A model generated the notes under the pieces. It did not search any database. It was not told the origin of the DNA and was given only the letters and a program-made list of their open reading frames with translations. A stretch of 26,455 bases of DNA from a virus (Duplodnaviria > Caudoviricetes), in the IMG/VR virus record IMGVR_UViG_3300011335_000448, positions 1-26,455 of that record, one strand, 5' to 3'. Below are positions 2,892 to 20,901 of this stretch, piece by piece; position 1 is the first letter of the stretch, and each line of letters begins with the position of its first letter. Both the position numbers and the translations under genes were made by a program.

Positions 2892-2899
2892 TATTTATA
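2892..2899 (-). promoter_or_regulatory. T4-type late promoter motif TATAAATA (exact consensus)
   Basis: Intergenic, sense orientation, followed by N5-ATG. Confidence 0.75.
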
Positions 2900-2911
2900 T
2901 TTTAAACAGTG

Positions 2912-4123
2912 TTATCTGCTTTTGCCGCCACCAAAACTGGTGTTCATGCCGCCACGTCCTGCACTCTTGCCGCCTGTGCTGGCACCCATCTGTGCCATGT
3001 TTTGTGGTGCTTGTTGCATGGCTTGTTGGCCACCCATTGTGCTACTTAAATTTAAAGGAGCCTGTTGTCCTGGATTAGGATTAGGGTTAAATGAATTTTG
3101 TTGGCCACCCAAATATGGATCTTGCACTATGCCCGTATTTCTAGCCATTACTTCAGGATCATTGGGACCACCTACTTGATAATCTCTGCCTGGTAGATAT
3201 GCGTTATCGCTAATTTGTATGCCAGAACCTTGTTGGCCACCGAATAAAGTATTGCCAGTAACTGGATCTTTTCTATTCATAGCTCTCATGTAAGGATCAT
3301 CAGGTATTTGTCCCTGACCTTGTTGGCCAACACCGAATAGTCCTTGATCGTTTATGTTAAATTCACCAGGAAACCTAGGGGTTGGACCACCGGGTTGATC
3401 GTATGGATTGAATCCTGGACCAGGAAATGTTCCACCTGGAAAGAATCCACCAGGACCACCAGGCATGCCAGGTTCTATAATAGGCATGGGGAAAGGCATG
3501 GGGAAAGGCTGATCTATAGGATTAGGCATAGGCTGCGGTTGAGGTTGAGCCTGCGGTTGTCTAGACTTATAAAATTCTTCTAATCCCTGCATGCCATAAG
3601 GATTTTTCTGGCGCTGAGTCATGTATTCTTTATACAATTCCGGAGTGCCCATACCATACGTGCGAACATCAAATCCAGGATCATATAAGTCTGTTCCAAA
3701 GTCATCAAATATTTCACCGGGACCAAACGGAGTTCTTTGTCCAGGATTATTAATTGCAAATTGTCTTTTTGTATTTTGATCCTGTATTAAAGGATCTACT
3801 TTTGCACCTGGTGCCACTGCTCTTTGAGTAGGTGTGCGTTGAATTGTTTTTACAGGTGTTGGGGCCGGAGTAAATGCTCCTATTTTCTCGTCTATGTAAT
3901 TTGCAGGATTTATTTTTGAACCTGGTGTAGCCGCTCTAGGAGCCGCACCGGCTATAGGCTTAGGTGCTACTATAGGTCTAGCAGGTGTTCTCAATGCAGG
4001 CATCATTGGTGGCAAAATATCTGGACTAGATATTGGTGTTTGCAATGGACTAATCTTAGATGCAGGTGCCTTAGCCACCACCCTGGGTTGTGTTGTAGTC
4101 TTACTTTTTGGAATGGTAGCCAT
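2912..4123 (-). CDS. Pro/Gln/Gly-rich low-complexity, probably disordered protein (403 aa)
   Basis: ORF with AAGGA RBS; composition; ends GGKSAGRGG...GGGKSR. Confidence 0.85.
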   Translation of the reverse strand: MATIPKSKTTTQPRVVAKAPASKISPLQTPISSPDILPPMMPALRTPARPIVAPKPIAGAAPRAATPGSKINPANYIDEKIGAFTPAPTPVKTIQRTPTQRAVAPGAKVDPLIQDQNTKRQFAINNPGQRTPFGPGEIFDDFGTDLYDPGFDVRTYGMGTPELYKEYMTQRQKNPYGMQGLEEFYKSRQPQAQPQPQPMPNPIDQPFPMPFPMPIIEPGMPGGPGGFFPGGTFPGPGFNPYDQPGGPTPRFPGEFNINDQGLFGVGQQGQGQIPDDPYMRAMNRKDPVTGNTLFGGQQGSGIQISDNAYLPGRDYQVGGPNDPEVMARNTGIVQDPYLGGQQNSFNPNPNPGQQAPLNLSSTMGGQQAMQQAPQNMAQMGASTGGKSAGRGGMNTSFGGGKSR

Positions 4124-4132
4124 CGTTGATCC

Positions 4133-4438
4133 TTATTTTTTAGGTGATTTATATTTGCTGGGCAACTTTGCGCCATTGGCTGTGGAGTTCTTCTTTGGTC
4201 CAACGTTTGTGTCAGCACTTAGGCCTTCAACTGCTGGATCACGGAAACTTTGCATGCCACGACCACGTGCGGCCACAGCATCAGTTACCATGTTAGCAAG
4301 AGCACTGCGCTCATTGCCTGAACTGGCTTTTTCTTTCATGAATGTATCACGCTTGCCACCCATGTCTTGGTTACCAGTTGTTGGTCCACGCTTTTGGTTA
4401 ATAGCCGCTGCTTGTGGGTTAGATGTAGAGATTCTCAT
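4133..4438 (-). CDS. Small basic hypothetical protein with an RGPTxGN motif (101 aa)
   Basis: AAGGA RBS; ATGA overlap with the upstream gene. Confidence 0.85.
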   Translation of the reverse strand: MRISTSNPQAAAINQKRGPTTGNQDMGGKRDTFMKEKASSGNERSALANMVTDAVAARGRGMQSFRDPAVEGLSADTNVGPKKNSTANGAKLPSKYKSPKK

Positions 4439-4827
4439 AGTTGGTTTCCTTTTGTTGGGCCACGACCCATGTTAATTTTGTCTGCGTTGCCCTTGTAGTT
4501 TTGACCTTCGCTGGGCATCCATGTTCTAGTGCCAGGGAAGCGACCACCACCTGATTCACGAACTTGTGCACCACGGTTGATGTTGTCACGAACTGATCCC
4601 TGTGCTGGTAGTTTTGGAACTACTGCGGCATCTGGATATGTGCTGTCGTCATCACTTTTGTTGCCCACTGTGGGACCACGTTTGCCAGTGATTAGTTTGT
4701 TGGGGTTTTGCATACCACTGTATTGATTACCGCAGTATGATTTAATGGCTCCACGATTAACGCCATTGCCTGCCATGCCGTTAAAATCTAGATTCATATC
4801 GCTTTGTGTTTTGCTGTTATGCTTCAT
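4435..4827 (-). CDS. Gly/Asn-rich hypothetical protein with two RGPTxGN motifs (130 aa)
   Basis: AAGGA RBS; ATGA overlaps at both ends. Confidence 0.85.
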   Translation of the reverse strand: MKHNSKTQSDMNLDFNGMAGNGVNRGAIKSYCGNQYSGMQNPNKLITGKRGPTVGNKSDDDSTYPDAAVVPKLPAQGSVRDNINRGAQVRESGGGRFPGTRTWMPSEGQNYKGNADKINMGRGPTKGNQL

Positions 4828-4982
4828 TTTGTTTTTCCTTTTGTCTTTGCTGACTTCATTGCCGCTGCTCGCTTAGTTGAATACGCGATTGCCAGGGCTT
4901 GCTTTTGAGGCTTGCCTGCAGCGATTTCTGTTTTGACATTCTCTGTGAATGCTTTTTTACTGGTTGATTTTTTTAACGGCAT
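4824..4982 (-). CDS. Small Lys/Ala-rich protein (52 aa), below the ORF-track cutoff, probably leaderless
   Basis: MPLKKSTSKKAFTENVKTEIAAGKPQKQALAIAYSTKRAAAMKSAKTKGKTK*; resembles the MPLKKG...KQAVAIA small proteins seen next to phage terminase genes; fills the gap exactly with an ATGA overlap. Confidence 0.88.
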   Translation of the reverse strand: MPLKKSTSKKAFTENVKTEIAAGKPQKQALAIAYSTKRAAAMKSAKTKGKTK

Positions 4983-4987
4983 AGTGT

Positions 4988-4995
4988 TATTTATG
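4988..4995 (-). promoter_or_regulatory. Late-type promoter motif CATAAATA-N5-ATG
   Basis: CATAAATA ACACT ATG; no Shine-Dalgarno sequence. Confidence 0.72.
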
Positions 4996-5001
4996 CTTTC
5001 T

Positions 5002-5373
5002 TTAGTCTGGCTCTTGCTCGTCTACTGTAACACCGGTAAACTTACGCAGTGCTTCAGCAAAGGCTGCCTGCTTGGCTGCAACAGCGTCTGCGCTGTCTTC
5101 TACTTCTATCTTGGCTAGTGTATTCATTACTTTGTTCAAGATTAAATTGTGATACTTAATCACAGTTTCTCTGTTGCCTTCATTTCTGGCAGTTAAGAAG
5201 TCATCTACAAGTAAATCCTCATAACGTTGTCCACCGCTTCTGGCAGTTAAACTGGCTAATAAGTCTTCCACGCTGATATGGTTTTTGCTGCCGGGCTTGC
5301 GTCCTGCGTTGGCTCTGGCGCCGCCCCATTTACCGGGCTTCTTTTCTGGTTGGGATTCTATGCTATTTGTCAT
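5002..5373 (-). CDS. terS: Probable terminase small subunit (start revised to 5373)
   Basis: N-terminal WGGARANAGRKPGSKN motif typical of small terminases, helical remainder; ATG at 5373 is 5 nt after TAAATA. Confidence 0.65.
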   Translation of the reverse strand: MTNSIESQPEKKPGKWGGARANAGRKPGSKNHISVEDLLASLTARSGGQRYEDLLVDDFLTARNEGNRETVIKYHNLILNKVMNTLAKIEVEDSADAVAAKQAAFAEALRKFTGVTVDEQEPD

Positions 5374-5378
5374 AATAT

Positions 5379-5386
5379 TATTTAGC
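5379..5386 (-). promoter_or_regulatory. Late-type promoter motif GCTAAATA-N5-ATG
   Basis: GCTAAATA ATATT ATG. Confidence 0.72.
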
Positions 5387-5389
5387 ATG

Positions 5390-5397: not shown

Positions 5398-5418
5398 TAC
5401 ATTTACCTAGGAATAGAC

Positions 5419-5934
5419 ATGAACAAGTATAGTTGGAGAACCGCAGTGGCCGAGGACATACCTAAAATAGTTGCCATGGCAGAGCAACATTTTCAAACAG
5501 AGATAGACACAATCTTTACACCAGAACCAATAGTTTATAGTAGACACATTACTTTTGCTGTGGTCAATCAATATTATAATCCACGTGCCGAGTTATTAAA
5601 CGTTGCAGAGAATAGTTCAGGCATGATGGTAGCTTATACCTGGGCTAAAAGTGGTGACTATACCGCTTGGAGCGACATGGAGATGATTTCAGTGCGTATG
5701 GCTCACTTGGATTTAAGTCTCAGTGCCAGAGATAGAATATATTTAATTCAGGATATGATTAATTTGTGGGAGGGCTGGGCTAAGATTATTGGTGTGCCCA
5801 TTGTATGTAGCACTACCATGCGTAATGATCAAACTGCGTTTCTAAAACTACACGCTAGAAATGGTTATGATGTGCGTGGTAGTTATGCGTATAAAAAATT
5901 GAACACTGAACAAACCGGCCTGCCAATTCCTTGA
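5419..5934 (+). CDS. GNAT-fold (acyl-CoA N-acyltransferase-like) protein
   Basis: WRTAVAEDIPKIVAMA start, LINLWEGWAK-like helix and FLKLHARNGY end are GNAT-like; AGGA RBS. Confidence 0.75.
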   Translation: MNKYSWRTAVAEDIPKIVAMAEQHFQTEIDTIFTPEPIVYSRHITFAVVNQYYNPRAELLNVAENSSGMMVAYTWAKSGDYTAWSDMEMISVRMAHLDLSLSARDRIYLIQDMINLWEGWAKIIGVPIVCSTTMRNDQTAFLKLHARNGYDVRGSYAYKKLNTEQTGLPIP

Positions 5935-5994: not shown

Positions 5995-6426
5995 TTATTC
6001 CAATGTGCTACGGATCATCCAAATAGATTTTTCTAGATCTAGTGCTTGATCCTGTGCGTAGTTACTGACTTCTTCCAAGTCTTCTTCACTGGCTATGGTG
6101 ATTAGTTCTTTGTAGTCACTTAACAAATGTTCCAGATCCATCATCACAGTTTCCAGTAATTCATCTGCTGTGCCTTCTATGGCGTCAGTGGGTATAGTGC
6201 TATCAAAGACAACATCATTGATATCGCAGGGCATGTATTCCTGCATAGTGCGTAGTATCTCACCAATCTTATCTATCTCTGCTTGTCTACGTTCATAGAC
6301 ACCCTGTAGTAATTTGTGATCACTTCTAAAATTGCGGCCTGTAATGTTTACATGTGCGGCATGGCTTCTAAAATAAACTATAAAGTTATTTTTAAAGACC
6401 AGTGTTAATTGTTCTGCTGTTGTCAT
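5995..6426 (-). CDS. dps: Dps/ferritin-like protein
   Basis: HAAHVNITGRNFRSDHKLLQGVYE...IDKIGE and C-terminal LEKSIWMIRS match the Dps signature; the usual HWN is HVN here. Confidence 0.88.
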   Translation of the reverse strand: MTTAEQLTLVFKNNFIVYFRSHAAHVNITGRNFRSDHKLLQGVYERRQAEIDKIGEILRTMQEYMPCDINDVVFDSTIPTDAIEGTADELLETVMMDLEHLLSDYKELITIASEEDLEEVSNYAQDQALDLEKSIWMIRSTLE

Positions 6427-7163
6427 TGTTGTCCTAATACTCTTTTAGCGGCTTGAACACGCATCTGCATATTTAATCTGTCCTTGTCAAGAATTGCCTG
6501 CTCTTCGGCAGTTAATCCACCATAGCGTTGATTTCTCACTGCTGATCTTTGATTGGCTGCGCCAGCCTGTCTTTGTGTAGCATACTCGCCACGTTGAACC
6601 TGTGCATATGGATTGAATTCCAGGCCTGCGGCATTTGGGTTAGCACGAATTTTGTCTTGTTCATAGGCTGCCATTTGATAGGGCATCATTAAAGCACTTT
6701 CAGGAGCAAGTGCGCCTGTTAATAATGCTGAACCTAAACCTCTAGCACCTGCGCCCAGAGCACCAGCACCTTGACGCACAGCATTTACAGTATTACCAAT
6801 AACTTCTTTAACTGGAGTTCCTGTGGCTGTATCAGTAGCCATTTTAAACATACTTGCATAAGGAGGATGTCCAGCCATCATTGAGCCTACATCTATTGCA
6901 CCTCTAACTGCTTGTTGAACTGGCATGTTAGCCACTGTTTGAGCACCTGCTCGCACAGCATTCATGGCTTCAGGAGCCTGAGCAGCCATTTGTTGCACAG
7001 TATTGGCAACAGCACTGACAGCCTGTGGTGCTAGGTTAGGCATTGAGCCTTGTTGTGTTTGTGGTGCAGATCCTAGACTACGTGCGGCTTCATCAATATC
7101 TGCGGCTGTGGGTTCAGTTTCAAACTCAACTCGTTGTCCATTGATTTCATATATAAAGGCCAT
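6423..7163 (-). CDS. Ala/Gln-rich putative internal virion (ejection) protein
   Basis: Composition; translationally coupled to flanking genes; position after the large ejection protein. Confidence 0.65.
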   Translation of the reverse strand: MAFIYEINGQRVEFETEPTAADIDEAARSLGSAPQTQQGSMPNLAPQAVSAVANTVQQMAAQAPEAMNAVRAGAQTVANMPVQQAVRGAIDVGSMMAGHPPYASMFKMATDTATGTPVKEVIGNTVNAVRQGAGALGAGARGLGSALLTGALAPESALMMPYQMAAYEQDKIRANPNAAGLEFNPYAQVQRGEYATQRQAGAANQRSAVRNQRYGGLTAEEQAILDKDRLNMQMRVQAAKRVLGQQ

Positions 7164-9769
7164 TATTGAACCTTTTTATATTTGTTTCCACTGCTGGTAG
7201 TTCCAGAATTTGCATTGGCAGCACCAGGCTCACCAATCTTGCTACCCAATGTAAAGCCTGGCTCAAGCATACCCATGTTAATGGCATTCTTACGTTGCAT
7301 TTCTGCGGCATCCAGCATAGCATTGTGTGTCTTTGTCAGCCAAGCATTGATTGCCTGTGGAGTGCTGGTTTCACTGATAGGATTATTCTTCATCCAAGTC
7401 TCAACGTCAAAGTTACTGATTGCTGGACCCATGTAGTTCTTAATACCTTCTAATCCACCACGAGTAATTAAACTACGCAATAGTTTTGTATTGTCTGCAC
7501 CATTAGTTCCAAACTGTTCACCAAAGAACTGTTGAACTCTAGGCAATGGACCTGCACCACTTAGAGTAAAGTTAGGTCCTAGGTTGTGAACACCTGAATT
7601 GATGACATCAATACCATCTTTGAACTTATTCAATGTGCTACGAACATCAGTTGCTTTGCTGACAAATGCTTCAGCATCTTTTTGCTGTAGTTTGTTTTTA
7701 CCTTCCCAGGTTTTTAAACGGGCTTTAAAAACACTATCAGGTTCGCCAGGACGTTGAACTGGTTCTTCTGCAGGATTCTGTGCAATAGCCTGTGTCTTAG
7801 GTGGTATGTAATTGGTAGCATTGCCTGCACCCACTGGCTGTCCTGCAGCCTGTGCTTGTCCACCGGGTAATTGATTAGTTAATGTTCCAGGTTGTAATCC
7901 CAGTTCTTGTTCAATACGTTTTGGTGTAACACCTGCCATACGCAGTGCATCAAACTTTTGTTGTTGTGTTGGCTGAGAAGTTAGTTTACTCAAGTTTGAA
8001 TAACCAGCATTTACTCTAGTGTCTTCTTGTTTAGTATACTGTGCTTCTGGAATCAATACAGCCGTGTCACCTGCATAGGGTTTACCACCAAGTTTGAATT
8101 TTTGTTTTCCATCACTAAGTGTTTGCACTGATACAACTTCACCACTGTTAGGATTAATACGGGTTTCAACTTTGCTTACATGCACACCTTTACCCAGTAT
8201 GCCACCACTGGCTTGTTCCAGTAAATTACGGCTTAATCGTTCATTGCTGCCAGCAAAGTTACCCTGCAATACACGACCATTGGCAGTGGTTAAAATTTCT
8301 ACTGCACGATCATTGCCTTCTTCATCAGTGACTGTGGCATTTTGCCAGGTATGTCCAATGCCTAGTTGTTCACCTTTTTGGTTTGCTAGATCATTTAATC
8401 CAACATGTTTGAATAACAAATATTGTAACCAGTCACCAACACTGTTGCCTTCACTTTTCTTAGTGGCAATTTTGGCTAATTCATTTTGTCCCAGTGTGGG
8501 TAATGTTTCTTCAGCAATTTTTAGATTACGTTGTTGTGTTAACATGTCAGCAACACGCTCTCCTGCACGTTGGCGAAGGTAAGCAGGTTGTGTGTCATCA
8601 CTGTGAAGTTTCATCAACTCCATGGGGTTGTCTTGCACTGTTTGGTAACGAGCGATTGCTGTCTGTGTTTGATCAATCTGTGGTGTTTGTGCAGGCATTG
8701 CCATACCAGGAACACGTAATCCAGGAGCACCAGCACCTGTGGCCAAACTATAAGCACTGGCAGCCTGAGGTTGAGCATACTGTTGCAGTGCCTGCATTTC
8801 ATTTTGTGCTTGTTGTTGCACTTGTTCTGGACTTACTGGACCCATAATGGTTTGAGTGCCTTCTACACCTTGTCCAGTGGCCACTGCTACACCTTCCTGT
8901 GGCTGTGCCTGTGGGGGACGACTTGTAGCACCACTGGCTGGCATTGCCTGTCCATTTAGTCTAGCATTTATAATTGCGGCAGCCTTGTCATAACCACCAT
9001 TGGCAGCCTGTGCCTGTGGACTAATATAAGGACGACCCTGATCATCAGTTTGTGTTAAGAACTTGTGCAAGCCACTGGGACCTGCAAAGTGAGCCGCTGA
9101 TAAAACACCGGGAGTTGTTTCAATGCCACGTTGTTGTAAGAATCTAGCATTGTTATTAGTGATAATATTTTGTGCTCTAGTCTGTTGTTCTTTATTTGCT
9201 TGTGTAATGTCCGCAGGTAAACTGGGATCTGCTCTACGAGCATCAGCATACGCTGGTGCAGTGATACCGAATAATCCAAATGCACTACTCTTTGTTCTAT
9301 CATGGAATCCAATGTCTGCTCTATTGCCTGATTCTTGTTGTGCTATGCTAGAGTTGTATGCATTGACATCAAAATTTAATTTTGGTGCTGGTGTAGGCTG
9401 TGGTGTTGGCTGGGCTGCAGGTTGATTGGGATTAATTGCACCTTGAACATTGGCAGCAAAGTTTGCTGGTGCAGCCTGTAAGTTGGTAGCAAAGTTTTGG
9501 CCTGCTTGTTGAACATTACGAACAAAGTTTTCTGGCATGGCTGCTAGAGCATTGCCTAAATTTTCAAATACTGTGGGTTGTGCTTTTATGCCCTGTGCTT
9601 CTGGAGTTATTTCTTGTTTGGTAATAATCTCTTGAGTGCCATCAGCATAGACTTTACGTTCTTCAGTTTGAACGGCAGTGTTGGCAAGTTCACGCTCACG
9701 TTTGCGTTTTTCTTCCTGTTCTTCTAGAGTTAAAACTTCTTGTCCTGTGTATGGATCAATGTATGCCAT
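7163..9769 (-). CDS. Large internal virion/DNA-ejection protein with a lytic-transglycosylase (lysozyme-like) domain
   Basis: IAQQESGN (catalytic Glu), SSAFGLFGIT and LSAAHFAG motifs at about 9080-9346; remainder Gln/Ala-rich. Confidence 0.78.
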   Translation of the reverse strand: MAYIDPYTGQEVLTLEEQEEKRKRERELANTAVQTEERKVYADGTQEIITKQEITPEAQGIKAQPTVFENLGNALAAMPENFVRNVQQAGQNFATNLQAAPANFAANVQGAINPNQPAAQPTPQPTPAPKLNFDVNAYNSSIAQQESGNRADIGFHDRTKSSAFGLFGITAPAYADARRADPSLPADITQANKEQQTRAQNIITNNNARFLQQRGIETTPGVLSAAHFAGPSGLHKFLTQTDDQGRPYISPQAQAANGGYDKAAAIINARLNGQAMPASGATSRPPQAQPQEGVAVATGQGVEGTQTIMGPVSPEQVQQQAQNEMQALQQYAQPQAASAYSLATGAGAPGLRVPGMAMPAQTPQIDQTQTAIARYQTVQDNPMELMKLHSDDTQPAYLRQRAGERVADMLTQQRNLKIAEETLPTLGQNELAKIATKKSEGNSVGDWLQYLLFKHVGLNDLANQKGEQLGIGHTWQNATVTDEEGNDRAVEILTTANGRVLQGNFAGSNERLSRNLLEQASGGILGKGVHVSKVETRINPNSGEVVSVQTLSDGKQKFKLGGKPYAGDTAVLIPEAQYTKQEDTRVNAGYSNLSKLTSQPTQQQKFDALRMAGVTPKRIEQELGLQPGTLTNQLPGGQAQAAGQPVGAGNATNYIPPKTQAIAQNPAEEPVQRPGEPDSVFKARLKTWEGKNKLQQKDAEAFVSKATDVRSTLNKFKDGIDVINSGVHNLGPNFTLSGAGPLPRVQQFFGEQFGTNGADNTKLLRSLITRGGLEGIKNYMGPAISNFDVETWMKNNPISETSTPQAINAWLTKTHNAMLDAAEMQRKNAINMGMLEPGFTLGSKIGEPGAANANSGTTSSGNKYKKVQ

Positions 9770-9772
9770 TGT

Positions 9773-10510
9773 TTAACCTCCCTGCTTGCCAAACATTCCA
9801 CCAAGATCAATTTTAGATGTTGAGCCAGTAGTGTTTTGTCCTTGAGTGCCTCTAAAGTCTGGAGTGTAACTACCTGCTGGTGTTCCAAAGATTACACTGG
9901 CATATTGATTATAAAGTTGTTGTGGTGTCATTGCCGCTGATACTTGTTGTCCAGCCGCACCCAGTGCTTGTCCAATATTACCTGCGCCCATGCTGGCTAA
10001 ACTATTGGCTGCACTCATACGTTGTGCCGCAATCTGTGCTTGTTTGTCTGCGGCTATATTAGCCATTAATGCGGCGTTAGCGCCTGCAGCCTGTTGTCCT
10101 GCCAGTGCTTGTCTTGCACTACCTAAATTACCACTACCACCAAATGTTGCTGCCTGTTGTGCTATGTTTTGAGCATACTGTGTCTGTGCAGGATTCAATG
10201 CTGCCCTAATTTGATTGGCTTCATAGTTAGGATCAAATAAACTTTGCAGTCCTGCAATACCTGTGCGTAGTGCTGACTCACCAGTTTCACCCAAGGTCTG
10301 TTGTGCTTTACCAGCAGTGCCTGCTAGGTTCTGTGCCGCAGTTAAAACACCGCCTGCATTTTTATTGTAGATGTCTTTGGCACCACCAACCGCACCTGTA
10401 TAGGTAGGGATAATGACATCTGTTAACATTTTTGTCTGTGCCGCAATAGCGTCTTTTTGTTCTTGCGTTAGAACTGGTGCGCTACTACCGCTGGATTTAC
10501 CGAAACTCAT
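9773..10510 (-). CDS. DNA transfer/pilot-type ejection protein (P22 gp7-like composition)
   Basis: Ala/Gly/Gln-rich; MSFGKSSGSS start and FGGSGNLGSARQ motif; AAGGA RBS. Confidence 0.7.
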   Translation of the reverse strand: MSFGKSSGSSAPVLTQEQKDAIAAQTKMLTDVIIPTYTGAVGGAKDIYNKNAGGVLTAAQNLAGTAGKAQQTLGETGESALRTGIAGLQSLFDPNYEANQIRAALNPAQTQYAQNIAQQAATFGGSGNLGSARQALAGQQAAGANAALMANIAADKQAQIAAQRMSAANSLASMGAGNIGQALGAAGQQVSAAMTPQQLYNQYASVIFGTPAGSYTPDFRGTQGQNTTGSTSKIDLGGMFGKQGG

Positions 10511-10532
10511 AGTTGTTTCCTTTAATATCTAT

Positions 10533-10540
10533 TATTTAGC
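10533..10540 (-). promoter_or_regulatory. Late-type promoter motif GCTAAATA
   Basis: 22 nt upstream of ATG 10510, followed by AAGGA. Confidence 0.72.
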
Positions 10541-10553
10541 GTTTTTAAATTCA

Positions 10554-12560: not shown

Positions 12561-13694
12561 TTAACGTTTAATAACTTGTGCAGTAAAGCTTCTAAAGCCA
12601 TAGGTCGCTATGGCAATAGGCTGCACGTTTGGTGATGTTGAAACATTGTTGGGATCATAATATTGATTGTTAAAGTATATCTCAAATGTATACAAGAAAT
12701 ATCCTATACCTGGACTGTCTATAACATTGTTAAATGTATTAACGTCTGGTTTAAAAAATGTATAACCATCAACCATGGTTAATGGATCAGCAAACATTGT
12801 ATATGGCACAGTAACTAAGTTACCATCCAATACCCAAGCATAACCATTATACACACTGGGAAACGTTTGTGCTCCATTGGGTAATGTTGTAGCGTTGGTT
12901 GCACGATATCTGTTTATTCTTAGTTCATAGGTTGGAGCCGTAAAGCCAACATCCAGTGTGGTGTAAACAGGATTAAAGATGTATCCTTTGAATGGTGCTT
13001 GGCAAGTAATAAACACACGGTCTGTGGGTCCTGTAACACTGACATCAGCAAACAAGTCTGTGACTATATTCTGTTGTTGCCAACTTATTTGTCCACCTGT
13101 AGTGTATGCTGTCCATGTTTGTGCGCCATCTATTCTCAGTAAACGTATGGTGCTGACACTGGGACCACTGACATAGACAGCAACTCTATAATCACCATTG
13201 AATACACTGGGTGTTACTCCGGATATTGTTACTTGTTGATTGGCCGCAAATGGATTACCTGGACCATTGTCTGTTATTTGAAATTGATCATAAATTGCTG
13301 TGGGCACTGTGCCTGCAATATCTACAAATATTGGATTAACTGTAATGGCAACATCAATGATATTGTTAGTCACTGCGGTAATGCCAGTGATTACTACGTT
13401 GGGTATGGTAATACCTGGTGGCACTGTAGGATAATAATCTATACTGCTTAACTGTGGCCAGTAGTTTGTGTTGCTGGGAGTTACTGTATTACCTGTTACT
13501 GTGGCATTGTTGGTAAACGGTGCCGACATGGCGTTGGTAAACATGTCATATTGAAATGTTGTAATAATGTCATTGGCAGGGTCAGCAGTTTTACTAACAC
13601 CTTCAAAGTTCTGTCCAAGACTTTGTGGTCCAGATAGCAGATAGTTTACTGCTTCAATTATGTCACTGCCAGTGTCTATGGGATATTGACTCAT
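12561..13694 (-). CDS. Putative tail-associated beta-rich structural protein (377 aa)
   Basis: Follows the tail hub gene; Thr/Val/aromatic-rich; internal module VTISGVTPSVFNGDYRV...AYTTGG. Confidence 0.65.
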   Translation of the reverse strand: MSQYPIDTGSDIIEAVNYLLSGPQSLGQNFEGVSKTADPANDIITTFQYDMFTNAMSAPFTNNATVTGNTVTPSNTNYWPQLSSIDYYPTVPPGITIPNVVITGITAVTNNIIDVAITVNPIFVDIAGTVPTAIYDQFQITDNGPGNPFAANQQVTISGVTPSVFNGDYRVAVYVSGPSVSTIRLLRIDGAQTWTAYTTGGQISWQQQNIVTDLFADVSVTGPTDRVFITCQAPFKGYIFNPVYTTLDVGFTAPTYELRINRYRATNATTLPNGAQTFPSVYNGYAWVLDGNLVTVPYTMFADPLTMVDGYTFFKPDVNTFNNVIDSPGIGYFLYTFEIYFNNQYYDPNNVSTSPNVQPIAIATYGFRSFTAQVIKR

Positions 13695-13699
13695 ATATT

Positions 13700-15619
13700 T
13701 TAACGATCGTCCTCAGTTTGTGTATATTGCCAGGTTATTGCACTACAGATCCAAGTGTCCGTGTAACTGACATCACCAAGTTCAATGTTGTTGACACGGA
13801 ATGCATTTTGGTTTATCTGTGCCCAGGGATTGTCTGTGTCTAATTGCACTGTAATGGCTGTGGATGTTGAACTTGAACTACCCACACTGTTGGCACCTTC
13901 CAGGGTAATATCAATACTGCCTGTGCTGGGAGTAATAGTTATACCTCGGCTGTCCACGTTGTTGACTTCGGGTAAGATCCTGTGCACCATTAACTTACCT
14001 GAATAGTCTTTGATCATCTTAATATTGTCTCTGCGGAACACTGACGTAATGTTGCCCTGGGGATTAGCCATGGTGGTTAAAAACGCTGTGCCCTGATCCT
14101 TCATAACCAGTTTACTGCTGGCAGTGCTGGGGATATAAACAACTGTTCTACTTGCCGGATCATTCTTCCAAGTGGAACTACCACCATCATAATACCATAC
14201 TGGACTTTCCACACTGGCAATAGCATTGGTGACATCACGTGGTGGATTCCATACATCCAGATCATAACGATATGATAACATCTTATTGGGACTGCCAGCA
14301 GTGGCCGCTGTAGTGGGGTAGTAAATTTCAATTTGACTCTTGTTGGTGTTTACTTCCATGTGTATCTTGTCTGTGTGTAAGGGATCTACTTGATCAAAGA
14401 AATAGTTCTTTACACGTTGATTACCCAAGCCTGTAAACTCATTGCCATCAAACATCCATATATCTCTGGCATCAATACCATAGACCATTCTATCTGTGTT
14501 GACACTGCAATTTGGATTCAACAATCCACGACCAGTGTTAAACAGTCTTACACCAATAATAGGTGCTGATGTTGTTGAATAGTTGATAGGACTGAGAACA
14601 ACTGTGTCCCAGTAACTGCAGACATATAATTGTCCATTGCTGGGAAATGCATCCTGTGCTGGACCACGCAGGGGAACTTCTAATTGGTTGGCTACGTTGC
14701 TAATGGTTGGTTGCCAAGTTGCTGGCATTTGATTAAGACCAAATTGTATACTCCACTGCACTGTGGCAGGGAATCTTGTTGTAACACCATTGGTGCCTAC
14801 AATGGTTAAGTCACCGGCAACTAATATTGATCCCACGTTGGGAGTTGAATACATACGCACAAAGCCTGCTTTAACTGATGTCCATTCTGCAGGCAAATAG
14901 TTCCAGACATAACTTTGATTGACTGTGCAGGCTGTGCCCAGAGTAATGCCAGTTAATCCACAGGCTATGTCCACATAGGTAGTTGTTGATCCTGTTACTC
15001 TCCAGTTACTGTTAAATGTTGCAGTGGTAGCACCTTCTACCTTGACATAACCACCAATGTCAAAAGGTATTGTGGCCTGTGCTGTGGTAAAGGTAATTCT
15101 AACCGTGCCTGCCACCGGATATGAAACTGTGGTAAATGGTAGTTCAGTGATTGTGCCATAGCGAACTAACACAGGTGCACCTGATCCTGTGTCAGGCCAA
15201 AACATAGGATTACCTACGTTGTCGTTGAACACTGGCACTGTGCCATTCCAACTGTCAGTGATATTGGTTGATAAACTATAACCTGATATCGCTGGCTGTG
15301 AGGTGGCACCTACGTTGGGAGTTATCTCTGTCCAGGTTGTAGTGCATGTTGCATACCAACGACCTGCTGTGGTGGCAATAACAAACCAAAAGTTACCATC
15401 CTGTCTATAACTGCCTGTGACATAAAATGGTGTTCCAGTTACAGCACCCAGGATTTCTAAGTCACCAAACACTGATTTAATACCACGCACATTGGTTTCA
15501 ACGTTGCTTCCTTCATTATATTCATTACCGCCCAGAGCCGTTGAAGGCACATCAGGACTAAATGTCATCTTAGTAAATGGTATACGAACTTCGTCTAGAG
15601 GATTTCTTATTTGTGGCAT
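13700..15619 (-). CDS. Putative tail hub/nozzle (packaged-DNA stabilisation, P22 gp10-like beta-propeller) protein
   Basis: 639 aa, beta-rich; motifs VQWS, GRGLLNPNC, DIWMFDG, RVKNYFF, IYYPT, YRYDLDVW; position upstream of the ejection genes. Confidence 0.68.
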   Translation of the reverse strand: MPQIRNPLDEVRIPFTKMTFSPDVPSTALGGNEYNEGSNVETNVRGIKSVFGDLEILGAVTGTPFYVTGSYRQDGNFWFVIATTAGRWYATCTTTWTEITPNVGATSQPAISGYSLSTNITDSWNGTVPVFNDNVGNPMFWPDTGSGAPVLVRYGTITELPFTTVSYPVAGTVRITFTTAQATIPFDIGGYVKVEGATTATFNSNWRVTGSTTTYVDIACGLTGITLGTACTVNQSYVWNYLPAEWTSVKAGFVRMYSTPNVGSILVAGDLTIVGTNGVTTRFPATVQWSIQFGLNQMPATWQPTISNVANQLEVPLRGPAQDAFPSNGQLYVCSYWDTVVLSPINYSTTSAPIIGVRLFNTGRGLLNPNCSVNTDRMVYGIDARDIWMFDGNEFTGLGNQRVKNYFFDQVDPLHTDKIHMEVNTNKSQIEIYYPTTAATAGSPNKMLSYRYDLDVWNPPRDVTNAIASVESPVWYYDGGSSTWKNDPASRTVVYIPSTASSKLVMKDQGTAFLTTMANPQGNITSVFRRDNIKMIKDYSGKLMVHRILPEVNNVDSRGITITPSTGSIDITLEGANSVGSSSSTSTAITVQLDTDNPWAQINQNAFRVNNIELGDVSYTDTWICSAITWQYTQTEDDR

Positions 15620-15704: not shown

Positions 15705-15965
15705 TTAGATCCAGACCACTGCAAAATCTTCTGTGTCAAATATTTCATTTAACTTATCACGTTGATTTTCTGCCACTCTTAGATTGGTATAACTCATCTT
15801 CTTATACTTGTAACCACTGCGAATGTTCATGGGTTGATCAACTCTAATGCTTACGGGTCTGTTCTTATAAGTGATCACATAGGTCTGCTCTGCGGCTAAT
15901 ATGTCCCAGGTAATACCTGTGTTCATAGTCACTGATTTTAATACTGGTAGGCTGGGTCTAGTCAT
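15705..15965 (-). CDS. Hypothetical protein (86 aa), resembling a small protein of large uncultured phages
   Basis: AAGGA RBS, ATGA overlap; pattern MTRP...KYKKMSYTN...KLNEIFDTEDF (similarity recalled, not searched). Confidence 0.8.
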   Translation of the reverse strand: MTRPSLPVLKSVTMNTGITWDILAAEQTYVITYKNRPVSIRVDQPMNIRSGYKYKKMSYTNLRVAENQRDKLNEIFDTEDFAVVWI

Positions 15966-16186: not shown

Positions 16187-16215
16187 TTTGTTCCTTGTTA
16201 TGTTATCTACTAAAT

Positions 16216-16263
16216 GTGTTACTGAAATTATCTATAAAAGCTCTAAGAACATTTCAGTAACAC
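16216..16263. repeat. Perfect 13-bp inverted repeat with a 22-bp AT-rich spacer; candidate replication origin
   Basis: GTGTTACTGAAAT (16216-16228) and ATTTCAGTAACAC (16251-16263), immediately downstream of the helicase gene. Confidence 0.7.
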
Positions 16264-16286
16264 TTTTTCGGTTTTTCAGTCAAATA

Positions 16287-17741
16287 TCACCGGATTTCTC
16301 CGGATTTGAGCATAGCCCAGATCTCTTCATTGGTTTTACCACTGAGTTCTGGATATCTGGCTCTACGTCTCTGGCATTTTCTCTGTATGCTTACTGCCAA
16401 TTTATTTTCTTTTTGGGGTCTACCACTGGGTTTTAGTTCTTTGCTTCTAACCAAACGCATTTCAGTAAAATTGATATTGGTAAAAAATTCACCCAAACCC
16501 AGTATGACTCTATTGTCCAAACAAAATACTGTGGCAGGTTTACCTGTTCTTAGGCAACTACGCATCAGTGTTTGGTAAAAAGTGTAAACAGTTTGAGCCA
16601 TGTGAACTGTGTCCAAATTGTTGTCACTGTCAATGCCATAGACATCACGCAGAAATCTAGTCATATTGGGCGTAGCATTCAGTGCTGATTCTAGACTAAC
16701 GTATTCATAACTTCTGTAATCATTGCTGCCGGCACTGTTGTGTGGTAGTTTTCGTTCATTTTTAAATACTTGTCTATTTTGGCTGTTGTTACGCAATACC
16801 AAGACGCCGTCTTCTTGGGCTATGCCCTGACTGTGATCTCTGTATTGAGTGATTAATTCTGGTTCATTGTCCTGCTTGTAACTGCTCCAGGTAAATTTTA
16901 AATCATCGGGACCATGAATATTCATGGCGACTTCATGTGGTTTGAATGCTAGTTTTGGATGTATGTTCCAAGTTATGCCATGTTCTGTCATCCAGCGACT
17001 CATAAATGTGTATTCAAATGCCGCACTGGCAATCCAGATTGATGCCCAATTTTCTAAAATTGCTGGCAATAATTCTTGTATAATGCTGATACGTTCACTT
17101 TGAGTTACGTTACCCAAAAACTTATCATAGTCATCAATATGACAGCGGCACTGCCAGTTTGTATTCAATAAGAATCTAGTCTGTTCCGCGGCATCTGTGA
17201 TAAAACTACCCTTTAGACCGTGAAATCTCAGTTCTTTCCATTCCACTGCTAGATCCCTGGGTTCCAATAAACTAGTGTTTTCACACCAGTTAAAATCAAC
17301 TAGACATTCATCTTCGTGATATACTGCAATTTCTCTGTAGGGCATTATGGCTTCGTCTATGACGAGATGATATCGCTGTCGCTGAATATGGGATATATTA
17401 CTTTGTAAAAACGCTGCCTGTGTTATAATAACAATGTTACAGCCTGCATCCAGTTCCTGGTGCAGTTGTCTTTGAACGTTGTCTGCGTTTTGACTGGTAA
17501 TTTTGGCTAGTTGATTACTGTGATTGCCAGCACCCTCTGCATTTAGATACCGTTGAAACTCCAGTTCATAAGCATCACAGAGTTGAAGACTGGGCAACAC
17601 TACCAATACCCTGTCATTTAACTGCCAGCGCATTTTGATGTTACTCCAAGTGCTTAACACACGACCTTGATGTTTAGTGGGTGTGGGCGTGTTATCATAG
17701 GTCTTGCCCTCACCGCATCTACGACTGTCAACTATTACCAT
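16287..17741 (-). CDS. SF2-type helicase, putative origin-binding replication protein (start revised to 17741)
   Basis: Walker A CGEGKT, VLVVLPSLQL (motif Ia), Walker B VIDEA, GSNDY, motif VI-like YQTLMRSCLR, basic C-terminal GRP tail; AAGGA 4 nt before ATG 17741. Confidence 0.75.
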   Translation of the reverse strand: MVIVDSRRCGEGKTYDNTPTPTKHQGRVLSTWSNIKMRWQLNDRVLVVLPSLQLCDAYELEFQRYLNAEGAGNHSNQLAKITSQNADNVQRQLHQELDAGCNIVIITQAAFLQSNISHIQRQRYHLVIDEAIMPYREIAVYHEDECLVDFNWCENTSLLEPRDLAVEWKELRFHGLKGSFITDAAEQTRFLLNTNWQCRCHIDDYDKFLGNVTQSERISIIQELLPAILENWASIWIASAAFEYTFMSRWMTEHGITWNIHPKLAFKPHEVAMNIHGPDDLKFTWSSYKQDNEPELITQYRDHSQGIAQEDGVLVLRNNSQNRQVFKNERKLPHNSAGSNDYRSYEYVSLESALNATPNMTRFLRDVYGIDSDNNLDTVHMAQTVYTFYQTLMRSCLRTGKPATVFCLDNRVILGLGEFFTNINFTEMRLVRSKELKPSGRPQKENKLAVSIQRKCQRRRARYPELSGKTNEEIWAMLKSGEIR

Positions 17742-18312
17742 GTAATCCTTGATTGAGCATGTCAGCATATCTTATCACTGACTTTATTCTAAGTTTATCA
17801 CGAATAGTATCTATGCTGTCACTGGCACTGGGATTAAGTTCTTCAACGTAGTTAAACTCAGTTTCACCACGCTGCCTAACAATATATGGTGTAATATCCC
17901 AGTGGCCATTTTTATATTCTATGCCAGAATCTATGACTTCCTGTAATTTACGCTGATTAAAATCACTGCGTTCTTGTTTAATCTGTTGTCGTTGTAGATC
18001 TGGACTCGCGCTGATAATACTGGGTCTACTGTCTGCATCAATCACAGGATTGTCGGTGTAACTATCCAGAACAATTTTATTATTTTTTGTTTTGTAAAAA
18101 ATATTGTCTATGACCACTGTGTTATCATCGTCATAGGCCTGTAAAACAGTTTGCCATTGACTGTTATTGTTAAAATCACTGCCAATGTTTGTGTTTGCTC
18201 GCTGACCCTGAGCATTGGTCATTGTTACATGAGTGTAATCATTACCACTGTATTTGCTGGGTCGCACCACTGCACCGATGATGGTCCAGGGACCCGTTGC
18301 TTGAATTTTCAT
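17728..18312 (-). CDS. Hypothetical protein (194 aa) with a beta-rich N-terminal domain ending IDADSRP
   Basis: Strong AAGGAG RBS; overlaps the helicase start. Confidence 0.85.
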   Translation of the reverse strand: MKIQATGPWTIIGAVVRPSKYSGNDYTHVTMTNAQGQRANTNIGSDFNNNSQWQTVLQAYDDDNTVVIDNIFYKTKNNKIVLDSYTDNPVIDADSRPSIISASPDLQRQQIKQERSDFNQRKLQEVIDSGIEYKNGHWDITPYIVRQRGETEFNYVEELNPSASDSIDTIRDKLRIKSVIRYADMLNQGLHGNS

Positions 18313-18355: not shown

Positions 18356-18703
18356 TTATATTGTTCCATTTTGTAGATAATATGCTTTGAGCATAACACG
18401 TTTAATACGTTTACCGGGATCTTTGATTAGTTGTTTAGTGCGTAACTTTTCCAAACTGCGTCCCAGGCTGTCATAGTCACTGGTTGACATCCAAATAGCA
18501 TTTTTAATTTCCGCTATGCATTGTTCAAGATCAGTAATGTCTGCCAGTTCTGCATAACCCAGATCACTGTGTTCTCTGCGACGTTCACTGGGTCGCTGTA
18601 AAACCCAGTCATTTTCTTTGATTACAAAATGTTCGCAGGCAGTGATCAATTGTTCATCTAGGCCATGTAATACCATTATAAATTTAAATTCATTGTAAGT
18701 CAT
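18356..18703 (-). CDS. Hypothetical protein (115 aa)
   Basis: ORF fills the gap; CA-rich leader without a Shine-Dalgarno sequence. Confidence 0.7.
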   Translation of the reverse strand: MTYNEFKFIMVLHGLDEQLITACEHFVIKENDWVLQRPSERRREHSDLGYAELADITDLEQCIAEIKNAIWMSTSDYDSLGRSLEKLRTKQLIKDPGKRIKRVMLKAYYLQNGTI

Positions 18704-18723
18704 TGTTGTTGTTTTATAATAAT

Positions 18724-18745
18724 GGGCCCAGCTTGCGCCAGGCCC
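18724..18745 (-). terminator. GC-rich hairpin with a GCAA tetraloop after the ParB-like gene (weak terminator or stabilising hairpin)
   Basis: GGGCCTGGC-GCAA-GCTGGGCCC (9 bp with two G-U pairs), followed by ATTATTAT rather than a U-run. Confidence 0.6.
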
Positions 18746-18751
18746 TGTTTA

Positions 18752-19738
18752 TCAGTCTTGTTTAATCAAAGTTTCAATTACACTTTTCTTCAATGTAACA
18801 GCAAATGCTGGCTTCCAATACGTGCTTTCTTTGAAGTCTTTGTATAGACCATAGGCCAGTAATGGTGCTACACCACTGTTGCCACTGAGTCCTCGGGGTT
18901 TCCAGTTTACTTTACTTTGATCCTTTTGACTGGCTAGGCCAATGAGGTATTGTTGTAGTGCAAAATTTATGGTGTTTTTGCGAGCATCTGGATAGATCTG
19001 CATGAGTTTGATTAAACCCCAGTAAATGTCCTGATTAATCACAGTGCAACCATTGGGATTGTTAGCCCAGGCAATAGCAATCATGTCTCTGGCTTGTCTG
19101 CACAGTGTAATGTCATTGCCCGCAATTTTGATGCCTTCAGCAAAGGCACGATAGCCAATGTTGATATGTCCCTGTGGAGTTGGACTGGGCACACTGAAGT
19201 CAGTGTCACCTTGAACGTATAAACCCAGTAAGTCCAGGATCTCTGCTTCTTTGACTGCAGTTTCTTCACCGCTGTAGAAACGATTGACAAACAAGACTTC
19301 TTTGCTCAGTGTTCTGCGTCCACGTTCCTGGCTGTAAGCAAAGTAAAAGGCAGCCTGTTCCTTTTTACCATCAATGACGATGCAGGGAACTTCTTCTAGG
19401 CCAATAGCAGTGGCCAGTGCGTGTCGTCCACAGCCGTCCCAGACATAATGGTTACCGTCACGTTCATCATAGCAAACTGACAATGTGCCAAATGCCCACA
19501 TGTCAACGCCTTCTCTGTCAACGATGCGATCTGTAACCCATTTTTCCTTGGTGAAACGTTGACTGTCCAAGGGAATAAGATCCTTGAGTTTCAGTGTTTG
19601 TAGTCTTAGGTTGATGTCTTTATTATATACACGATTGCTACCGTGTTTGTCCAAAGTCTTTTGAACTGTTTCGCCTGTAGTATCACCGCGAAATTTAGTG
19701 TGAAATTTGCCAGTAGTGGCAAGAGTTAAAGTTGTCAT
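18752..19738 (-). CDS. ParB/Srx-like N-terminal domain protein (DUF6551-like)
   Basis: LIPLDSQR...FGTLSV...HYVWDGCGRHALA...EVPCIV...AAFYF; DGCGR replaces the usual DGQHR; AAGGA RBS. Confidence 0.7.
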   Translation of the reverse strand: MTTLTLATTGKFHTKFRGDTTGETVQKTLDKHGSNRVYNKDINLRLQTLKLKDLIPLDSQRFTKEKWVTDRIVDREGVDMWAFGTLSVCYDERDGNHYVWDGCGRHALATAIGLEEVPCIVIDGKKEQAAFYFAYSQERGRRTLSKEVLFVNRFYSGEETAVKEAEILDLLGLYVQGDTDFSVPSPTPQGHINIGYRAFAEGIKIAGNDITLCRQARDMIAIAWANNPNGCTVINQDIYWGLIKLMQIYPDARKNTINFALQQYLIGLASQKDQSKVNWKPRGLSGNSGVAPLLAYGLYKDFKESTYWKPAFAVTLKKSVIETLIKQD

Positions 19739-19753
19739 TTTATTTTCCTTATC

Positions 19754-19812
19754 GGGAATCGTATCCCAGTGTTGGCTTTCGCCCTGTGTGTCAGCAACCC
19801 AATGTCGCTGAC
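19754..19812 (-). promoter_or_regulatory. Structured 5' leader with three consecutive hairpins
   Basis: GTCAGCGAC-ATTGG-GTTGCTGAC, GGC-GAAA-GCC and GGGA-TACGAT-TCCC between the promoter and the RBS. Confidence 0.55.
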
Positions 19813-19822
19813 TACAAGTTTA

Positions 19823-19850
19823 ATTATACACGTAATTCAATAAAAGTCAA
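19823..19850 (-). promoter_or_regulatory. Sigma70-type promoter for the ParB-like gene
   Basis: TTGACT-N16-TATAAT. Confidence 0.78.
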
Positions 19851-19919
19851 CACAATTATTGATTTAATTAAAACTGTGAATACCAGAAAATAACTCGGTC
19901 TACAGCGTTTTTACCCTGG

Positions 19920-19932
19920 TAACTTGTTGATT
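19920..19932 (-). promoter_or_regulatory. IHF-consensus site
   Basis: AATCAACAAGTTA matches WATCAANNNNTTR; flanked by CAGCGTTTTT direct repeats (19903-19912 and 19949-19958). Confidence 0.5.
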
Positions 19933-19991
19933 TCATTGAAGTTTTTTTCAGCGTTTTTCGGGGTGCTACCCAAGTATACCCAGGATAAAAA

Positions 19992-20143
19992 AGCCAAAGA
20001 AAAAGCCCTAGATTGTTAAATGTTGTTTTTTGCAACAAAAAACCGATCAGGCACAGCGCCGTCCATTCCCCTCTGTTCAACTATACCAGTATACTAATTA
20101 CTGGATTTACTGTCAACAGGTTATTCAGCCAAAGAAAAAGCCC
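19992..20143. repeat. 17-bp perfect direct repeat AGCCAAAGAAAAAGCCC
   Basis: Copies at 19992-20008 and 20127-20143. Confidence 0.85.
20088..20116 (-). promoter_or_regulatory. Sigma70-type promoter with an overlapping palindromic operator
   Basis: TTGACA-N17-TATACT; CCAGTA-N7-TACTGG (20086-20104) overlaps the -10 box. Confidence 0.75.
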
Positions 20144-20158
20144 CAGTAAACTGAGGCT
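20131..20158 (-). terminator. Rho-independent terminator
   Basis: AGCCTCAG-TTTA-CTGGGGCT followed by TTTTCTTT. Confidence 0.8.
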
Positions 20159-20289
20159 CATTCCCGAATCACCTTACCCTACAAACAATATTGGAGATTA
20201 AACGTATGACAGCGATGATTCTAACAAGGATAATAACAACAAACAGACTATACTCTAATGGCCGTAAGATGGGAATCTGCCGTTGTCAT
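20131..20289 (-). ncRNA. Putative structured small RNA of about 155 nt
   Basis: Bounded by ACTAAATA (20293-20300) and an intrinsic terminator; long imperfect stem 20273-20290/20205-20221; second pairing 20264-20271/20170-20177; only a 13-codon ORF on this strand. Confidence 0.62.
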
Positions 20290-20292
20290 ATA

Positions 20293-20300
20293 TATTTAGT
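20293..20300 (-). promoter_or_regulatory. Late-type promoter motif ACTAAATA driving the putative sRNA
   Basis: Same motif, placed just before the 5' arm of the RNA stem. Confidence 0.65.
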
Positions 20301-20321
20301 ATGTAAAACTAAAATATGGGG

Positions 20322-20888
20322 TTATATATCTGTATTTTCCTGGAAATTACTGTGATCATTTATATCAAAATTTGCCAATATATCTCTGCTTGGACCCAGG
20401 GCATAATTCAAATAACTGTCGTCGGTGTTAAACAACTGTGATCTTAGTAGATCATAGTAGCCCATGGTAAACAAACGTTCATTGTCTGTAAGTGTGCGTT
20501 CACCACTACTGCCCTTGGCCCAGAGTAATCTACGCTGTGGTCTAAGTTTACTGGCATTGTTGTGACGCCAACGTGCCAGCGCAGGCATGTTCAGCATCCA
20601 TAGATCAAATTCAGCGATCTGTTCTTCGGGCACATAATAAACTGTAAACCATACTCGTCTACCAGCATCAAAATAATATACTTGATCTTCAATAAAACTA
20701 CAGATCCGTGATTTGATATCACAGATACTGCGATTGTAATTATTGGGTTCGGGTGTGGTGTATTCCGTTACTGGACTGGTTGTTTTAATCCAACCAATCT
20801 GTCTGGCTATGGCAACTCTGGGGTCTGGTAATTCTGGAAATTCACAGGCTGGCAGGATATGCCAGTCTCTGGTGTTATGGTAATTCAT
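20322..20888 (-). CDS. Hypothetical protein (about 188 aa; start revised from TTG 20915 to ATG 20888), probably leaderless
   Basis: GTTAAATA-CGGCT-ATG. Confidence 0.8.
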   Translation of the reverse strand: MNYHNTRDWHILPACEFPELPDPRVAIARQIGWIKTTSPVTEYTTPEPNNYNRSICDIKSRICSFIEDQVYYFDAGRRVWFTVYYVPEEQIAEFDLWMLNMPALARWRHNNASKLRPQRRLLWAKGSSGERTLTDNERLFTMGYYDLLRSQLFNTDDSYLNYALGPSRDILANFDINDHSNFQENTDI

Positions 20889-20893
20889 AGCCG

Positions 20894-20901
20894 TATTTAA
20901 C
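20894..20901 (-). promoter_or_regulatory. Late-type promoter motif GTTAAATA-N5-ATG
   Basis: Embedded in a short palindrome GCCGT-TAAAT-ACGGC. Confidence 0.7.

Follow-up and report, generated by a model that had tools for sequence, protein, structure and literature searches.

The DNA examined here, hereafter the window, is the whole stored IMG/VR record IMGVR_UViG_3300011335_000448 (26,455 bp, 74% complete by CheckV), and judging by its sequence it is a fragment of an approximately 35 kb freshwater podovirus from a large and common family. Its virion and packaging genes lie behind a lone hexamer, TAAATA, that behaves as a selected promoter and matches the T4 late promoter as described in the accessible text of PMC2988020. 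Given this placement, and given that no sigma factor is detectable in complete relatives, the phage likely borrows the late sigma factor of a helper. What is shown directly is the motif with its spacing and conservation, the lack of it in a sister clade, and the genes carried; helper dependence we infer. Specifically, we lean slightly toward the view that this is a satellite which encodes its own virion and takes its gp55-type late sigma factor from a co-infecting large T4-like phage. A fuller proposal, whose chances we judge to be evenly balanced, is that this widespread, abundant and fully tailed 35 kb family depends obligately, as a parasite, on the transcription of T4-like jumbo phages and is a bacterial counterpart of virophages, having arisen from a phiEco32-like ancestor through loss of its sigma factor, polymerase and lysin and through rewiring of its late promoters to the helper gp55.

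TAAATA occurs 13 times in the window, with 11 matches on the - strand and 2 on the + strand. The hexamer is rarer than chance over the window as a whole (13 versus 21.2 expected from shuffles), and thus the signal lies in placement rather than abundance. With curated genes, 9 of the 11 non-convergent gaps of at least 19 bp carry the motif, exactly as the original prediction had claimed, and 10 of 12 do so when sense orientations are counted. When the sequences of these gaps are dinucleotide-shuffled, the motif turns up in 2.3 on average and in 7 at most, with none of 5000 shuffles reaching 10, such that the expected enrichment over a shuffled intergenic background is borne out. All ten sites named in that prediction are present, although the + strand site placed at 5390 is actually at 5392-5397, and a sense site at 6470, located 49 nt ahead of the Dps-like gene, had been missed. 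The first T is exactly 11 nt ahead of an ATG at three sites (4988, 5379 and 20894), and five sites lie 25-30 nt ahead of one.

Ten relatives were rebuilt, with genes called by a simple script, to give a family set of 11 genomes that share a syntenic virion and packaging module and carry a variable module of 4-8 kb. Four relatives with terminal repeats are complete at 33.9-36.0 kb. Contigs covering window bases 1-20000 come from 4 runs in 2 studies, one run possibly being the source of the window itself. With relatives closing at these sizes and four runs covering this region, we rejected an origin of the window in some larger genome, and the small genome originally proposed (34-36 kb among relatives) stands. 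By synteny the missing part comprises the terminase tail, portal, scaffold and capsid, which are virion and packaging genes, and so the window contains the entire variable module. The complete relatives encode their own terminase, portal and major capsid protein, and the latter two are of SU10 type in relatives (PF23899, E 2.5e-47; PF17236, E 1e-17). The virion module is SU10/phiEco32-type, and not P22-type.

The family is widespread. Terminase relatives in IMG/VR number approximately 690, of which the best 80 show 79-93% identity and reside on contigs of at most 36 kb, and one gene alone accounts for 1193 protein clusters. One member, UFOVP1369, is present in GenBank, where the matched gene is named hypothetical. 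A search of GTDB genomes for a family prophage returned 4 loci at 28-40% identity, none of them a family member, and a plasmid search returned 25 records (best 30% identity) that likewise include no member. A Neptunomonas prophage has no excess of TAAATA.

Across 318 regions upstream of conserved genes in the 11 genomes, TAAATA appears 98 times within 40 nt, compared with 44 or fewer for each of 14 anagrams and 10 for antisense TAAATA. Measured to the ATG rather than to a mapped start site, these 98 sites peak at -11 and at -26 to -33. They are followed by AT-rich sequence and show no base preference near -35, which upholds the claims that a -35 box is missing and that the geometry is that of T4 late promoters, with a lone box peaking 11 nt ahead of the ATG. 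Orthologous virion genes hold the box at -11 or at -23 to -34. Individual orthologues keep it in 11 of 11, 10 of 10, 9 of 10 (the portal gene) and, for two others, 8 of 9 genomes, and a 245-aa orthologue in the ejection region has it upstream in 11 of 11. Terminase and capsid genes reside inside operons and have no TAAATA of their own.

Coding DNA, furthermore, is short of the hexamer: in each of the 11 genomes both strands have fewer copies than synonymous-codon shuffles (1 versus 8.1 and 2 versus 9.9 expected on the two strands of the window), and the control hexamer TAAAAT mostly shows no such depletion. Over 80 family loci TAAATA precedes 243 of 1242 genes versus 70.9 in shuffles, and over 80 loci of the sister clade of MW202484 (40-43 kb) it precedes only 30 of 1802 versus 48.8. 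MW202484 is the nearest GenBank relative (41.8 kb, 52% terminase identity) and carries Cro-like, Erf, SSB, RusA and chitinase genes; its own upstream regions hold the motif at 0 of 72 sites, and those of VPp1 at 1 of 68. Chance or AT-richness as the cause is ruled out by the shuffles, anagrams, antisense counts and sister-clade controls. An archaeal TATA box was also considered and rejected, since some of the sites form a -11 class, ribosome-binding sites do occur, and a TTT prefix is missing.

The likeness to T4-family late promoters extends to a lone AT-rich box one helical turn ahead of the start, no -35 element, AT-rich downstream sequence and a location before virion genes (PMC2988020). 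At 43 of the 98 family sites, (a/g)C occupies positions -13/-12, which is the late-promoter variant described for Aeh1 in the same source. A box at -11 is predicted to place the transcription start on the A of the ATG, giving a leaderless message; the 27 genes with this arrangement all lack a ribosome-binding site, an outcome that is partly forced by the position of the motif and that we do not count as independent. Whereas T4-like phages encode the sigma factor, co-activator and clamp (gp55, gp33 and gp45), the family has only the promoters, in a 35 kb podovirus, and it does not belong among T4-like phages. The gp55 families phrog_234 and phrog_12791 are found in 0 of 4 complete genomes by six-frame search, a jumbo phage genome used as a control (G011) is positive for both, and the capsid is of SU10 type.

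No sigma factor, RNA polymerase, DNA polymerase or clamp was matched among 28 window proteins compared with PHROG and Pfam or 27 compared with NCBIfam, in agreement with the original prediction. Scanning was extended to 134 proteins, comprising every called gene of one relative (G001) and one representative of each other cluster of 55-999 aa, and these include no sigma factor, RNA polymerase, DNA polymerase, clamp or integrase. They also include no credible endolysin, the one weak endolysin-family match being a virion-module gene, and no antiterminator was recognised among the scanned family proteins. No serine recombinase scored well in these general scans, which were not accompanied by a separate search. 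Full genomes gave the same answer: in the four terminally repeated relatives, Sigma70_r2 and the tyrosine integrase family PF00589 were likewise found in 0 of 4 by six-frame search. A gp55 profile built from jumbo phage sigmas and Aeromonas gp55 gave a best E of about 1 against 1439 family proteins. Profile-profile comparison of 91 families with gp55 reached 2.8% at best, compared with 14% for reversed controls, in a test where the positive control itself scored only 29% probability. A search of the family with phiEco32 gp36 gave a best E of 0.067, among sigmas that share only about 15% identity.

The variable module tells a different story about early expression. Two sigma-70-type promoters, each matching the consensus at 11 of 12 positions, reside on the - strand at 20116 (TTGACA-17-TATACT) and 19850 (TTGACT-16-TATAAT) ahead of the early module, within the interval 19823..20116, and had been missed in the original prediction; the total of 17 weak sigma-70 matches in this region is at chance level. 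Of the 11 genomes, 8 have near-consensus promoters in their variable module, and 6 have a perfect TTGACA-17-TATAAT. These promoters suggest that the host primary sigma factor is likely canonical and that early genes likely fire without a helper. The claim that structural, packaging and replication genes alike fire only with a helper is, as worded, not supported for the replication genes. The module swaps an SF2 (superfamily 2) helicase-like gene, a primase-helicase, or a DUF3987 and primase pair. The four complete genomes have no early-module gene in common, and consequently there is no conserved early candidate for a late activator of the family's own.

These observations bear on the possibility that the family consists of independent lytic phages whose TAAATA boxes are read by a small sigma-like factor or activator of their own that has escaped recognition, much as gp36 of phiEco32 reads a single-element promoter. 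We consider this unlikely, though the strongest of the alternatives. The virion module is of SU10/phiEco32 type, the Dps-like gene is shared with phage 7-11, and the sigmas of phiEco32-like phages are so divergent that they share 15% identity with each other (PMC8948821). Moreover, several universal small family proteins have no assigned function, two relatives (G002 and G008) carry helix-turn-helix proteins, and a preprint on a Thermus phage attributes the reading of a lone late -10 variant to a phage factor. Weighing the other way, no sigma-70-driven gene is common to the four complete genomes, the universal genes of undefined function reside within the TAAATA-driven module, the best gp55 profile match falls below the reversed controls, and the motif and its spacing would have to have converged on the T4 system. 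Predicted structures of the universal 267-aa protein and of an 86-aa protein are alpha/beta models that match no sigma and resemble no known fold clearly (best Z 4.2 and 5.1), which does not by itself prove a new fold, and an ESM Atlas search with both returned no named family. A universal 123-aa protein was considered as a hidden gp55 and rejected, since its match falls in the N-terminal part of a jumbo phage sigma and below reversed controls.

Nearly all window genes lie on one strand, downstream of strong sigma-70 promoters, and read-through into the virion genes is geometrically possible. A facultative exploiter could therefore grow alone by sigma-70 read-through or antitermination, with TAAATA helping it to survive or gain once the host polymerase has been captured by a T4-like phage. 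The abundance of the family in IMG/VR (about 690 stretches) would suit such a lifestyle, which we nonetheless judge improbable: no antiterminator, endolysin or integrase is recognised, the opposite-strand GNAT-like gene (TAAATA upstream in 8 of 9 orthologues) has no read-through route, and removal of TAAATA from both strands implies that these genomes regularly meet the factor that reads it. A poorer prospect still is that the reader is an alternative sigma factor or other host factor of a freshwater bacterium. In its favor, no family prophage was found in GTDB genomes. However, the early promoters are canonical, TAAATA misfits TANNNT spacing, a literature search gave no bacterial sigma with such a promoter, and the sister clade with a related terminase lacks the motif.

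One class of gp55-encoding large phages shows the motif with the spacing seen in the family. Its representative G011, a jumbo genome of 328 kb, has genes for a gp55-type sigma (E 8e-86 and 4e-24), for a clamp loader and for a T4-type capsid; a sliding clamp and gp33 were not identified in the 211 of its 398 open reading frames (ORFs) that were scanned. TAAATA precedes 88 of 397 genes in this genome versus 28 in shuffles, with the same -11 peak as the family. Around related jumbo phage sigmas, 80 loci give 194 of 1149 versus 77.5 in shuffles with the same two peaks, and so the suggested comparison with large phages reveals a gp55-encoding class with matching spacing. Many genes of G011 (L184-L200) have TAAATA 10-13 nt ahead of the ATG and are predicted to yield leaderless late messages.

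Gene sharing links the family to large phages as well. The 86-aa gene (15705..15965, - strand; 6 of 11 family genomes) is common to jumbo phages of the PA5oct, Atu_ph07 and SCTP-2 type. Its 15 GenBank matches all belong to jumbo phages with genomes of 284-490 kb, namely members of the PA5oct group, Atu_ph07, Phosso and SCTP-2; 70 of the best 80 IMG/VR loci lack the structural genes of the family, and five records that were checked, G011 among them, are jumbo genomes or fragments. A profile search with this protein family returned 617 proteins, for which no context is given. All five matches of the helicase-like gene are in Aeromonas and Serratia phages of 161-168 kb (Aeromonas phage 25, Serratia PS2/SP1). 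In Aeromonas phage 25 the weak homologue resides directly upstream of gene 55 (L206 3926-5365). An AAA gene of G001 has its best matches in enterobacterial phages of 164-176 kb. A glycosyltransferase of another relative, G005 (L087 8193-9311), is approximately 70% identical to those of cyanomyophages S-CAM7 and ACG-2014f and is preceded by a TAAATA; this gene may hint at the group from which the helper or host comes, or else at modification of DNA. Finally, jumbo-like contigs are present in all 4 runs that contain the window, and a 27.8 kb contig in run X1 is collinear with G011; this co-occurrence, for which there is no negative control, is compatible with a helper.

Several points weigh against a borrowed sigma factor. 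Neither RNA nor a host nor a specific helper was found. Absence of a sigma factor rests on homology searches, with the weak positive control described above and two proteins folded, and virion-module relatives such as phiEco32 and 7-11 do encode their own divergent sigmas, that of phiEco32 reading a single-element promoter (PMC8948821). The helix-turn-helix proteins of G002 and G008 adjoin the holin-like gene, and one of them weakly matches a 'late transcriptional activator' family (E 0.002). Independent small phages normally lack a DNA polymerase. Regarding the motif counts, the loci tallied are related rather than independent trials, and the anagram AAATTA is also depleted from the coding DNA of several genomes. 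Regarding the helper, CTAAATA is uncommon in G011-type jumbo phages (6 of 197 sites have GC or AC), and therefore that clade is probably not the exact helper. The tested stretches of PA5oct (7 of 56 versus 5.7) and Atu_ph07 (4 of 48 versus 2.6) are not enriched, and the accessible text on PA5oct gives only sigma-70-type promoters (PMC7318152). Matches of the helicase-like gene are only weak, with E about 5e-4. In a tree comprising 11 small-phage copies of the 86-aa protein, 25 of 44 distinct large-phage copies, PA5oct and Atu_ph07, the small-phage and jumbo copies fall on two sides of one branch, and hence no recent transfer is shown.

The proposed sequence of events would begin with host sigma-70 transcribing the small, swappable early module (helicase or primase, methylases, HNH) after entry. 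Host core RNA polymerase carrying the late sigma of the helper would then open TAAATA at -11 to -6 and transcribe the portal, capsid, tail and terminase genes into messages with a short leader or none. The host or the helper would provide DNA polymerase and lysis. Candidate routes by which the satellite might meet its helper are episomal waiting and riding on the helper virion.

Among the closest known systems are the phiEco32/SU10/7-11 podoviruses (Kuravirus and relatives), which share the SU10-type portal and major capsid protein, a related terminase and the Dps-like gene. Both groups have sigma-70 early promoters and a separate late promoter class. The phiEco32-like phages are 75-90 kb in size, encode their own sigma and DNA polymerase, and use other late promoters (PMC8948821), whereas the family is less than half that size at 33.9-36.0 kb, with neither sigma nor DNA polymerase detected (the polymerase among 134 proteins). 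Also close are the MiniFlayer and MulchRoom satellite phages of Streptomyces, which have their own capsid and packaging genes, lack key replication genes and carry terminal repeats (PMC10690885). MiniFlayer is non-integrating and depends on a virulent helper, a dependence demonstrated there and proposed here, and in the accessible text of that paper the words 'promoter' and 'sigma' occur 0 times. Unlike MiniFlayer, the family carries a complete podovirus tail module together with a helicase/primase module that can be swapped, and it is for late transcription that a helper is predicted to be needed. Primase and replicase genes are not lacking in the same manner: G002 and G004 have primase/helicase matches and the window has an SF2-helicase-like gene, with no DNA polymerase match.

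P4, phage-inducible chromosomal islands (PICI), capsid-forming PICI (cf-PICI) and PICI-like elements (PLE) share a helper-triggered late programme, and the late promoters of P4 are activated by the Ogr protein of its P2 helper. However, these satellites integrate and take helper capsids or tails, whereas the family has its own head and tail, no tyrosine integrase (PF00589) match in its complete genomes and no close GTDB prophage. Virophages, which share a late-promoter motif with their giant-virus helpers, offer a working analogy in that a small virus with its own virion exploits the machinery of a giant one; they infect eukaryotic hosts and form an unrelated lineage, and no homology is claimed. 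A full-text literature search, with most subscription journals outside its scope, found no description of a small phage that combines T4 late promoters with the lack of a sigma.

If a borrowed late sigma is correct, satellites can look like complete ordinary phages and be recognisable only by their promoter grammar. A cheap virome screen for hidden hyperparasites would then be to seek a late-promoter motif whose sigma is absent. Such dependence may help explain why phages of this kind resist isolation by plaque assay, and a family with hundreds of metagenomic members would add a further control on jumbo phage populations in fresh water. The accessible text of a 2026 review (PMC13359090) regards it as unclear whether large phages attract more satellites and notes that few systems have been cultivated.

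The remaining features of the window are as follows. The terminase large subunit (3..1490, - strand; phrog_2, E 4e-25; Terminase_6N) is cut at the contig end. The 267-aa gene (2008..2811, - strand; 11 of 11 genomes), whose alpha/beta model includes a small N-terminal helical domain, has TAAATA 86 nt ahead (2892..2897, - strand); within 2875-2897 (- strand), a 3-codon mini-ORF stands at -11 geometry from this box and is possibly a leaderless upstream ORF. The box at 4988..4993 (- strand) precedes a 52-aa gene that is predicted to be leaderless. The 123-aa gene (5002..5373, - strand; 11 of 11 genomes), which may be small-terminase-like, has no library match. Its box at 5379-5384 (- strand, 11 nt ahead of the ATG at 5373) forms a divergent pair with that at 5392-5397 (+ strand), which lies 27 nt ahead of the GNAT-like gene (5419..5934, + strand), an orthologue of which matches phrog_1249 weakly (E 0.002). 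Close divergent pairs occur in relatives too. The Dps/ferritin-like gene (5995..6426, - strand; PF00210; 11 of 11 genomes), served by the box at 6470, has its best GenBank matches in S-EIVl and 7-11-type podoviruses, and together with the GNAT-like gene (present in 9 of 11) it is a constant component of the late module.

Probable internal virion or ejection proteins, assigned from position and size, occupy 6423..12530 (- strand; TAAATA at 10533 and 12550). Tail and virion structural proteins follow at 12561..15619 (- strand; phrog_3287, E 1.7e-22; TAAATA at 15643). A probable replication module at 16287..18312 (- strand; TAAATA at 18337) encodes a 194-aa protein and the SF2-helicase-like protein (phrog_2467), and a 22-nt inverted repeat just 3' of the helicase-like gene (16212..16267) is a candidate origin or terminator. 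One low-depth contig from run X4 joins the ends of 18354-19845 and drops the 115-aa and 328-aa genes, and hence the early module varies within the population. A suspected likeness of the 328-aa protein to ParB was not confirmed.

A 583-bp non-coding gap (19739-20321) contains the two sigma-70 promoters, a TAAATA that faces it (20293..20298, - strand, followed only by a 13-codon ORF), a 20-nt direct repeat and a terminator-like hairpin; an Rfam search that included this gap returned no match. The adjacent 188-aa gene (20322..20899, - strand) has TAAATA (20894-20899) at -11, and this box lies in the loop of a short GC-clamped hairpin (20886-20904) that ends just ahead of the ATG. Next are a small holin/XhlA-like membrane protein (20912..21184, - strand; weak matches only) and, at 21186..26438 (- strand; phrog_2941), a 1248-aa tail-fibre-like protein, a 399-aa adaptor-like protein and the 3' half of a conserved 194-aa gene. 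Among 120 listed relatives of the tail fibre, contigs of stated length are all at most 39 kb except for one weak match on 133 kb, and so no helper is identified from them. The major capsid gene of G001 is divided into two ORFs with a gap of approximately 270 bp (L082 19566-20000, L083 4217-5005), possibly an intron, an insertion or an assembly error. Within the ejection region, 10554-12530 encodes a long Thr/Pro/Glu-rich repeat protein whose length ranges from approximately 350 to 1050 aa among relatives.

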